Part shown: positions 448-2,807 of the stretch, piece by piece
Position numbering within the stretch: the first letter of the stretch is position 1
Layout of the letters: every line of letters begins with the position of its first letter
Source of the DNA: a virus
UHGV virus genome: UHGV-0351052
Reading direction: 5' to 3' (one strand)
DNA length: 64,000 bases
The notes under the pieces: generated by a model
What the model was told of the DNA's origin: nothing
Databases searched by the model: none
What the model saw: only the letters and a program-made list of their open reading frames with translations
Translations under genes and position numbers: made by a program

Positions 448-681
448 AGTTCTACATTCTTCATATTGTTTTTCCGTTAAAACAGTAATATCATAATAAC
501 AGTCAGAAGAAGTTTTAACTGTAGAAATTTTATTATCAAAATACTCACGAGTCATTTTATGAGTATAATATTTTTTGCCATAAATGATAATAGGCTGATT
601 TGGTCCTGGAACTTCTAACTCGCTTGGGTTAGGAAGTGTAAAAAGAACTACACCAGAAGTATCTTTAAATCGTAAAATCAT
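436..681 (-). CDS. hypothetical protein (81 aa) immediately downstream of td
   Basis: ORF track; start overlaps td stop region. No recognisable motif; not NrdA-like. Confidence 0.35.
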
Positions 682-989
682 ATTGCCATTTTCCCTTTAA
701 TTGCTGGATGCGATTCATAATTTTCAAGGATAAAATCTTTCGGTTTCATGTATTCAGTTAACCAGTAAAGCTGTGTTTCGGTGTCACAATTTCCAAACTC
801 TATAGGCCAATCAATTTTAAGTTCACACAGTTCTTTAGGCTCACGACGTAAAATTTCTTTACATTGCTCAGTATGATTCATATAGATGTGAGTATTACCG
901 CCAGAAAATATCAAATCTCCTGGGATAAGATTACACATCTTAGCTACAATATGAACTAACGCAGCGTATGATGCAATATTAAATGGTAG
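678..989 (-). CDS. td: thymidylate synthase, exon 2 (103 codons plus stop)
   Basis: Translation LPFNIASYA...[10 protein letters not shown] is the TS C-terminal half; exon begins CTACCATTT directly after intron 3' end ...CTGAACATAATG, as in T4 td. Confidence 0.9.
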
Positions 990-1435
990 CATTATGTTCA
1001 GATAAGGTCGTTAATCTTACCCCGGAATTATATCCAGCTGCATGTCACCATGCAGATCAGACTATATCTCCAACTTGTTAAAGCAAGTTGTCTATCGTTT
1101 CGAGTCACTTGACCCTACTCCCCAAAGGGATAGTCGTTAGGCATTTATGTAGAACCAATTCCATTTATCAGATTTTACACGATAAGTAACTAATCCAGAC
1201 GAAATTTTAAAATGCCTCTTCCATCTCTTTTCAAAATCTTTAGCACTTCCTACATATACTTTATTGTTTAAAGTATTTTTAATCTGATAAATTCCGCTTT
1301 TCATAAATACCTCTTTAAATATAGAAGTATTTATGAAAGGGCAGTCCTACAATTTAGCACGGGATTGTCTACTAGAGAGGTTCCCCGTTTAGATAGATTA
1401 CAAGTATAAGTCACCTTATACTCAGGCCTCAATTA
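990..1435 (-). ncRNA. group I self-splicing intron of td, short form (446 nt) with internally deleted endonuclease ORF
   Basis: Minus-strand sequence after exon 1 (..TTGGGT) reads TAATTGAGGCCTGAGTATAAGGTGACTTATACTTGTAATCTATCTAAACGGGGAACCTCTCTAGTAGACAATCCCGTGCTAAATTGTAGGACT, matching the remembered T4 td intron 5' end; 3' end matches ...GGGGTAAGATTAACGACCTTATCTGAACATAATG. Confidence 0.8.
1137..1304 (-). pseudogene. I-TevI homing endonuclease remnant (55 codons; N-terminal 33 aa fused in frame to C-terminal 22 aa)
   Basis: Encodes MKSGIYQIKNTLNNKVYVGSAKDFEKRWKRHFK-ISSGLVTYRVKSDKWNWFYINA; T4 I-TevI is 245 aa with these same termini. The GIY-YIG catalytic domain is truncated and the DNA-binding domain is mostly gone. 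Confidence 0.7.

Positions 1436-2807
<1,372 letters not shown>

Follow-up and report, generated by a model that had tools for sequence, protein, structure and literature searches.

The td intron of phage T4 and its endonuclease I-TevI are the textbook mobile group I intron, and the locus considered here raises the question of what such an intron becomes when most of its endonuclease gene is gone. In the window, i.e. the complete 64,000-nt stretch of viral DNA that was analysed (UHGV virus genome UHGV-0351052), a first-pass annotation made from the letters alone had placed a td intron of 446 nt at 990-1435. It proposed that this intron had kept its ribozyme and the ability to splice, and that a deletion within the I-TevI ORF had removed the endonuclease and with it the ability to home. 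We consider it highly probable that the element is indeed a degenerate td intron in which I-TevI was lost by a repeat-mediated deletion, the ribozyme is intact, splicing is kept and homing is lost, and that the deletion is recurrent.

The minus strand of the window carries a T4-like frd-td-nrdA.2 block (Table 1), and the closest 25-kb stretch in the phage collection is that of Shigella phage SHFML-26 (95.6%). The reading frame of td exon 1, the last bases of which are ...GUUUUCUUGGGU, ends at a UAA made of the opening bases of the intron, and the ATG at 992 that opens the mechanical ORF upstream of exon 2 consists of the final three intron bases. The intron occupies the T-even td insertion site, and joining the exons in silico (1984..1436 + 989..678) restores the frame: the product is a Td protein of 286 aa that is colinear with its T4 counterpart (239/286 identical) and has the conserved junction ...VDVFLG/LPFNIASY.... 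The intron starts with UAAUUGAGGCC... and ends with ...CUGAACAUAAUG, both as in T4, and aside from a gap of 570 nt nothing notable distinguishes it from the intron in NC_000866.4. Exon joining and the T4 alignment thus bear out both the proposed identity and the proposed coordinates, to the nucleotide. Most relatives have a td intron of 1016 nt, and with the boundaries drawn here that of NC_000866.4 measures 1017 nt. The td exons are intact in the window and in all related short-intron loci.

Table 1. Features of the td region and its neighbourhood in the window (positions count from the first letter of the window).
Feature	Position	Strand	Description	Evidence
td (thymidylate synthase) exon 1	1436..1984	minus	183 codons	ORF list, alignment to T4 td
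td group I intron	990..1435	minus	446 nt; full-length td intron minus 570 nt of the I-TevI ORF	Alignment
td exon 2	678..989	minus	103 codons plus stop	ORF list, alignment
Ribozyme 5´ half	1342..1435	minus	Intron positions 1-94, identical to T4; P1 guide, P2, P3 5´ strand, P4-P5, P6, P6a 5´ strand	Rfam, folds, T4 identity
Ribozyme 3´ half	990..1157	minus	Intron positions 279-446; P6a/P6 3´ strands, P7, P7.1, P7.2, P3´, P8, P9, P9.1, P9.2, terminal G	Rfam, folds
I-TevI remnant ORF	1137..1304	minus	55 codons; residues 1-33 fused to 224-245	ORF list, Pfam, structure-chain alignment
Deletion junction	1206..1214	minus	Lone surviving copy of CATTTTAAA	Alignment with T4
Former I-TevI late promoter 8-mer	1328..1335	minus	CATAAATA here, AATAAATA in full-length introns	
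Hairpin hiding the Shine-Dalgarno and start codon of the remnant ORF	1303..1334	minus	AAAUACUUCU ... AGAGGUAUUU; intact	Folds
Free-standing GIY-YIG homing endonuclease	1-447	plus	C-terminal 148 aa of 243 aa; runs past the window start	

The upstream border of td varies among relatives. frd and td share 4 nt in the window (1981-1984), as in T4; G8, Lutter, Pu-Krd and AV121 have an extra ORF of 115 aa between the two genes (compare L003 1641-1988), and fPS-2 and EC121 have one of 68 aa (compare L019 417-623). These additional ORFs account for the differing match spans of the td-region search among relatives.

The first-pass annotation had asked for an alignment to the T4 td intron and had stated that full-length I-TevI holds two RHFK-coding stretches, in which it suspected the endpoints of the deletion. 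Both stretches exist in the T4 ORF, as AGG CAT TTT AAA at intron position 223 and AGA CAT TTT AAA at 793, 570 nt apart and in the same frame; the alignment with NC_000866.4 opens one single gap, of 570 nt, with its endpoints at this repeat, and one copy is left in the window. The direct repeat, CATTTTAAA, codes for HFK of both RHFK motifs, one at residues 30-33 of the GIY-YIG domain and one at 220-223 in the C-terminal helix-turn-helix (HTH), and GAGGCATTTTAAAATTTCG would be specific for the junction. In silico excision of these 570 nt from the AV121, EC121, Isf-Pm2 and Pu-Krd-SF6 introns leaves a single difference from the window intron, A101C, which points to a full-length td intron of the common Tequatrovirus type as the probable parent. 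Repeats of this length are unremarkable alone in an AT-rich ORF (7 pairs of 9 nt observed, against 5.4 +/- 3.0 in shuffles), and the telling point is that the deletion endpoints coincide with the repeat rather than that the repeat is rare. Deletion between short direct repeats is a classical mutational pathway in T4, familiar from the rII deletion studies. Replication slippage or illegitimate recombination between the two copies of CATTTTAAA would have removed 570 nt (190 codons), a segment lying entirely within the dispensable L6a loop, and because both repeats are in one frame the product is automatically in frame.

As a consequence, the two ends of I-TevI are fused in an ORF with the start and stop of the full-length gene. 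Residues 1-33 of the remnant are identical to residues 1-33 of the catalytic-domain crystal chains (1MK0/1LN0), and residues 30-55 are identical to the final 26 residues of the DNA-binding-domain chain (1I3J). This complete identity (100%) at both ends confirms that the ORF arose from I-TevI by an in-frame internal deletion and rules out an origin outside I-TevI, which had been named as a finding that would overturn the proposal. Pfam recognizes both ends (GIY-YIG 2.6e-10; I-TevI_DNA-bd 1.4e-12), and neither domain is complete. First, the catalytic domain of about 92 residues, including E75, is represented by 33 residues of the 97-residue 1MK0/1LN0 chains; the GIY and YVG motifs and R27 are retained, and E75 and everything else beyond residue 33 are gone. 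Second, the DNA-binding domain (PF20987) is matched at profile positions 29-51 of 51, with coverage of 26/116 residues of 1I3J at its C-terminal end, corresponding to the final 22 residues of the domain with one HTH helix. The zinc-finger linker (PF22635) had no Pfam match in the remnant, and tblastn with full-length I-TevI found no second I-TevI copy in the 64-kb window. The deleted residues 34-223 include E75 and the greater part of the GIY-YIG fold, the linker with the zinc finger, the minor-groove helix, and two HTH helices out of three. The intron-encoded element is not a functional member of the I-TevI family, the domains that define the family being absent. Judged from these missing domains, the 55-aa product would neither cleave nor recognize the td homing site, and the intron would have lost autonomous homing. 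The intron still splits the I-TevI target, and the allele stays immune to I-TevI from co-infecting phages. Other shortened I-TevI ORFs, of 56-73 aa (P0009-P0012), occur on Logan/ENA contigs; they share a common N-terminus and then diverge or stop, and are possibly frameshifted pseudogenes or sequencing errors.

The deletion of residues 34-223 leaves the core helices untouched, in agreement with the claim that the endonuclease lacks essential parts while the ribozyme core is intact. The covariance model of group I introns (RF00028, Intron_gpI) aligns over its whole length (1-253) with 40.5 bits (E 1.7e-8), and the remnant ORF appears as an insertion of 197 nt in the P6 loop. An Rfam scan of the whole window at the gathering threshold returned nothing, and the intron surfaces in E-value mode. 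The authentic T4 td intron scores 40.3 bits against a gathering score of 50, so that the miss is uninformative: an intron of proven function falls below the same threshold. The minimum free energy (MFE) fold of the intron has a z of -4.9, and this fold together with a consensus fold of five short alleles recovers P2, P3, P4-P5, P6, P6a, P7.1, P7.2, P8, P9, P9.1 and P9.2. Eight base pairs, located in P2, the ribosome-binding-site (RBS) hairpin, P8 and P9.2, are kept by double changes among the short alleles. By sequence and structure of P3-P9 the element is a group I intron of the td type, and its core is identical to that of T4-type introns.

With its final codons the remnant ORF runs into the 3´ strands of P6a and P6; that of P6a is UGGUUCUACA. 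P6a/P6/P7 are built in part from the terminal 20 nt of the I-TevI ORF (PMC3073962). The deletion spares the final 66 nt of the ORF, which supply the P6a/P6 3´ strands and lead into P7, and since it ends 66 nt before the stop codon, dispensable loop sequence alone has been removed. Variants of td with shortened P6a regions self-splice, according to passages of PMC2729099 that cite Galloway Salvo 1990. Core identity, intact exons and the published tolerance of deletions in L6a together argue strongly that the intron is competent for splicing. The RNA should still self-splice and td would still yield the 286-aa enzyme, and splicing in the absence of homing appears to be the best reading of the locus.

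The short intron is neither an artefact nor unique to the window. A 101-nt probe across the junction is found unbroken in five isolates, vB_EcoM_112 (e11/2), vB_EcoM_F1, vB_EcoM_FN, vB_EcoM-G28 and FL18, which make up 8 records with their RefSeq copies among the 177 that match the probe at all. All five carry the CDS of 168 nt, labelled ‘endonuclease I-TevI’, ‘homing endonuclease’ or ‘hypothetical protein’. At least 23 contigs encode the exact 55-aa protein (NCBI, ENA sewage metagenomes, Logan SRA assemblies), and within its 90% cluster 7 variants are spread over 63 contigs. Scans for the exact junction found it neither in IMG/VR nor in JGI metagenome contigs or GTDB genomes, collections that contain few T4-like td introns (the intron 5´ end is found on two contigs in IMG/VR).

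A diverged pair of Logan contigs argues that the deletion has occurred more than once. One of them (L031, SRR28523098; top phage-collection match 86.6% identical) has a td intron of 440 nt in which the junction is the same and the 55-aa ORF (P0008) differs at five amino acids. The other (L032, SRR28523209) has a full-length intron coding for an I-TevI variant (P0016) that is 77% identical to the T4-type protein, and in which AGACATTTTAA occurs twice, exactly 570 nt apart. Upstream of the junction the two introns agree completely (100% over 186 nt), and downstream they are 99.2% identical over 252 nt. The bases that abut the junction in L031 are lineage-specific, AGA (not AGG) on one side and AAT ATT TCT GGT on the other, and the deletion was therefore not imported from a T4-type short allele, it arose again at the homologous repeat. 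A single origin of all short alleles is rejected by this pair. By these comparisons, at least two intron lineages have each undergone the deletion on their own. Both domains keep RHF across I-TevI variants, which is why the repeat is conserved; the deletion recurs at a repeat that protein constraint holds in place.

Rearrangements of other kinds are found at related loci. In Escherichia phage ph0021 (OP557970.1; L033 2501-2752), a larger and different deletion fuses frd.1 in frame to the last 36 I-TevI codons at a shared ATGTGATGG; frd, exon 1 of td and the intron's 5´ half are lost, and td exon 2 remains as an orphan. In IMGVR_UViG_3300030021_000013 (L017 2901-3060), the first ~150 nt of the td intron, up to I-TevI codon 7, abut the last ~120 nt of exon 2, either by a deletion that inactivates td or in a chimeric metagenome assembly.

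Alignment of the short introns with long forms deleted in silico sorts the T4-type short alleles into two haplotypes: one of 446 nt with A101C (the window, F1, FN and two ENA contigs) and one of 445 nt that has lost one A at position 104 (e11/2, G28, FL18 and several ENA/Logan contigs). These alleles may go back to a single deletion event or to two. Both private changes fall within AATAAATA, the late promoter 8-mer that lies 24-31 nt upstream of the start codon and is annotated as a promoter in the record of phage Lutter; the change in the window, A to C at 1335, is inside the TTTAAT block of the I-TevI operator. This promoter is overlapped by an operator through which I-TevI represses its own late transcription (PMC2988022). 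Among the 168 phage records with the segment, the C variant has an exact match in 3 records only, those of F1/FN, and the one-A-deletion variant in 5 only, those of e11/2, G28 and FL18. Neither variant matches exactly in the ~160 full-length records, all carriers being short alleles, and in each T4-type lineage the promoter change is the sole difference from the common full-length haplotype. Two independent changes in a predefined 8-nt element of 446 nt have a naive p of ~3e-4, a post hoc figure based on two events. The lesion is not a universal feature, nor does it precede the deletion; both notions are rejected by L031, which retains AATAAATA and upstream of the junction is 100% identical to its full-length sibling. 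Since L031 is short and its promoter intact, the lesion follows the deletion and does not enable it. We suggest that the orphaned late promoter and operator tend to mutate next after the deletion, which may reflect either decay of a useless element or selection against a late promoter without its repressor.

The hairpin at 1303-1334 is kept in all alleles, with two compensatory pairs in the diverged L031. It hides the ribosome-binding site in early and middle transcripts (PMC2988022), and its retention fits the published observation that ribosome entry into the td intron impairs splicing (PMC2988022; PMC3073962). A sewage scaffold from ENA (MUNK22; L008 2871-3315) has a short allele of the C type that has lost one T between the Shine-Dalgarno and the ATG and in which the intron ends in AUAGUG, not AUAAUG; these extra changes may be continued decay or assembly errors.

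The distribution of the short haplotypes leads to the question of whether the intron still moves. They occur in at least four exon-1 flank haplotypes that also occur with full-length introns, and in e11/2 the allele is mosaic and its 3´ arm belongs to the type of phage U5. Both observations would be expected if the short intron were a non-autonomous mobile element that homes with a nuclease supplied in trans, either I-TevI from a co-infecting phage with a full-length intron or, by co-conversion, the free-standing GIY-YIG endonuclease encoded 543 bp downstream, at the start of the window. Homing in trans has been documented for an intron with a defunct endonuclease, in the case of T4 mobE and I-TevIII (PMC2790892). 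The free-standing endonuclease, an I-TevI paralogue that adjoins td in the window, L012 and other phages, has an N-terminal domain close to I-TevI (MKSGIYAIINTKTNKHYIGSAINFEERWKRHFKD...), NUMOD3 motifs and an HTH of the I-TevI type, and full-length copies are found at L012 3783-4514(-), L027 3001-3732, L028 3001-3732 and L029 2501-3232. It lies antisense between nrdA and nrdA.2/td, at the position of nrdA.1, with an overlap of 12 nt with the nrdA.2 stop, and it could co-convert the nearby td region. However, the gene is absent from most phages with the short allele (e11/2, F1, G28 and FL18), and it shows no specific association with this allele, being found beside an intronless td (Ozark and Klebsiella phage KP179), a full-length intron (RPN226) and the short intron (the window and L012). 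The mosaic, in turn, is explained equally well by recombination within two nearly invariant intron arms of ~220 nt, and ordinary recombination of this kind is the simplest cause of the mosaicism. Trans homing of the short intron is unsupported, and we regard it as unlikely. In the same neighbourhood, RPN226 (L028 1-2945) and L012 (4570-6069) have an HNH endonuclease gene that splits nrdA into two ORFs, just outside the part homologous to the window start, an arrangement that resembles the genes-in-pieces nrdA of Aeromonas phage Aeh1.

A broader proposal would join these elements, such that a deletion hotspot in I-TevI, the RHFK repeat, repeatedly spawns a 446-nt non-autonomous intron, which then inactivates its late promoter, unrepressed after loss of the autorepressor, and hitch-hikes by trans homing with I-TevI from co-infecting phages or with the neighbouring free-standing paralogue. 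The short intron would then relate to the I-TevI intron somewhat as a MITE relates to its parent transposon. As a whole we find this proposal improbable.

Another alternative is that the 55-aa product is not a dead remnant and instead is a functional small protein under selection, e.g. a regulator derived from I-TevI. None of the copies has an interrupted ORF, its Shine-Dalgarno, ATG and regulatory hairpin are kept, and a comparison of the window with L031 yields ~10 synonymous against 5 non-synonymous differences. However, all of the differences in the L031 peptide (5/5) are already present in the full-length P0016; they are older than the deletion and the synonymous excess is inherited, for which reason purifying selection on the peptide was rejected. 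Within the T4-type cluster, moreover, variants are mostly non-synonymous (T11I, S20N, K33T, V42I and K47N, against one synonymous change seen), the product holds 33 of ~92 catalytic-domain residues and one HTH helix, and the promoter needed for its expression is the very element that mutates. A functional peptide is very improbable on this evidence.

Misassembly had been named as a second finding that could overturn the deletion, and breakpoints within a repeat are indeed what a collapsed assembly would produce. The repeat of 9-11 nt is, however, far shorter than the k-mers of assemblers, and the short form recurs in independently sequenced isolates and in many separately assembled metagenome and SRA contigs. 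These include the genome of e11/2, which was built from 454 reads with Consed and the announcement of which is silent on the truncation. The short alleles are furthermore marked by linked private mutations (A101C or loss of an A at 104). The objection is not upheld, and an artefact is next to inconceivable. Hardly more credible, and effectively refuted already, is an ancestral, ORF-less short intron into which the endonuclease gene was later inserted with a target duplication of 9 bp: such an insertion would formally also leave a single copy of the repeat in short introns and two in long ones, but the short ORF already has the first 33 residues of the GIY-YIG domain and the last 22 of the HTH in frame, it is not credible that an insert would bring precisely the middle part that both domains lack, and each of two diverged lineages has a near-identical pair of long and short forms.

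The degenerate td intron that very probably remains is an ordinary kind of selfish-gene decay, a known kind of event comparable to the defunct I-TevIII of T4. What is new is this particular allele, the repeated origin of the deletion at one repeat pair, and the promoter lesions linked with it. Our literature search, which did not extend to the survey of Sandegren & Sjoberg 2004 (JBC), found no description of a natural td intron deleted for I-TevI. A circulating natural derivative that lacks I-TevI and should still splice offers a ready-made case for the fate of an intron after loss of its endonuclease. With it one could learn for how long such an intron survives while intronless alleles are common, whether the orphaned late promoter, normally autorepressed, becomes a liability, and whether a nuclease acting in trans can carry a defunct intron along. 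That the deletion recurs at one repeat pair shows that loss of the nuclease can be a one-step event of high probability rather than a slow decay. On a practical note, the labelling of the 55-aa remnant as ‘endonuclease I-TevI’ or ‘homing endonuclease’ in at least eight GenBank/RefSeq records inflates counts of active homing endonucleases.

Compared with the td intron of T4 (subgroup IA2) and I-TevI, the window intron has the same td insertion site, splice-site sequences, ribozyme core, RBS hairpin and ORF start and stop, and, the deleted segment aside, a single base separates it from full identity (100%) with common Tequatrovirus introns. It differs in the loss of residues 34-223, in having the 8-mer CATAAATA rather than AATAAATA, and in encoding no active endonuclease.

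The closest natural parallel is the nrdB intron of T4. Eddy & Gold reportedly recognized in 1991 that T4 I-TevIII is an internal deletion of the intact RB3 form. The I-TevIII gene of the T4 intron has an inactivating internal deletion and the gene in RB3 is intact (PMC2790892; PMC1865063). Both are T-even group I introns with an inactivated endonuclease and an intact version in related phages, which still splice (as the td locus here is predicted to do) and persist without mobility of their own. As with I-TevIII, the remnant can be recognized as defunct from pairs of long and short forms, here the window against AV121 and others, and L031 against L032. The two cases differ in the host gene, in the deletion and in the family of the endonuclease (GIY-YIG here, HNH in nrdB), and trans homing by the neighbouring mobE has been demonstrated for I-TevIII, whereas it is hypothetical here. 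We know of no report of recurrence at one repeat pair for I-TevIII.

A second parallel is provided by engineered td introns with deletions in P6a/L6a (Galloway Salvo, Coetzee & Belfort 1990, as cited in PMC2729099), which likewise lack most of the ORF loop, still self-splice and define a region tolerant of deletion, into which the natural deletion falls. The allele described here differs from these constructs in being natural and present in isolates and sewage metagenomes, in its endpoints, and in having the ends of the ORF fused in frame.

Homing endonucleases are said, after Goddard & Burt in 1999, to pass through a life cycle of invasion, fixation, degeneration and loss. The window intron corresponds to the degeneration stage, in which the nuclease is lost and the intron retained. 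This life cycle is discussed in PMC2988022. Unlike in the cycle, the td intron is not fixed in Tequatrovirus, the I-TevI upstream segment being present in 168 of ~790 td-matching records, and the nuclease has therefore been lost while targets remain, through a mutational hotspot rather than by slow decay.
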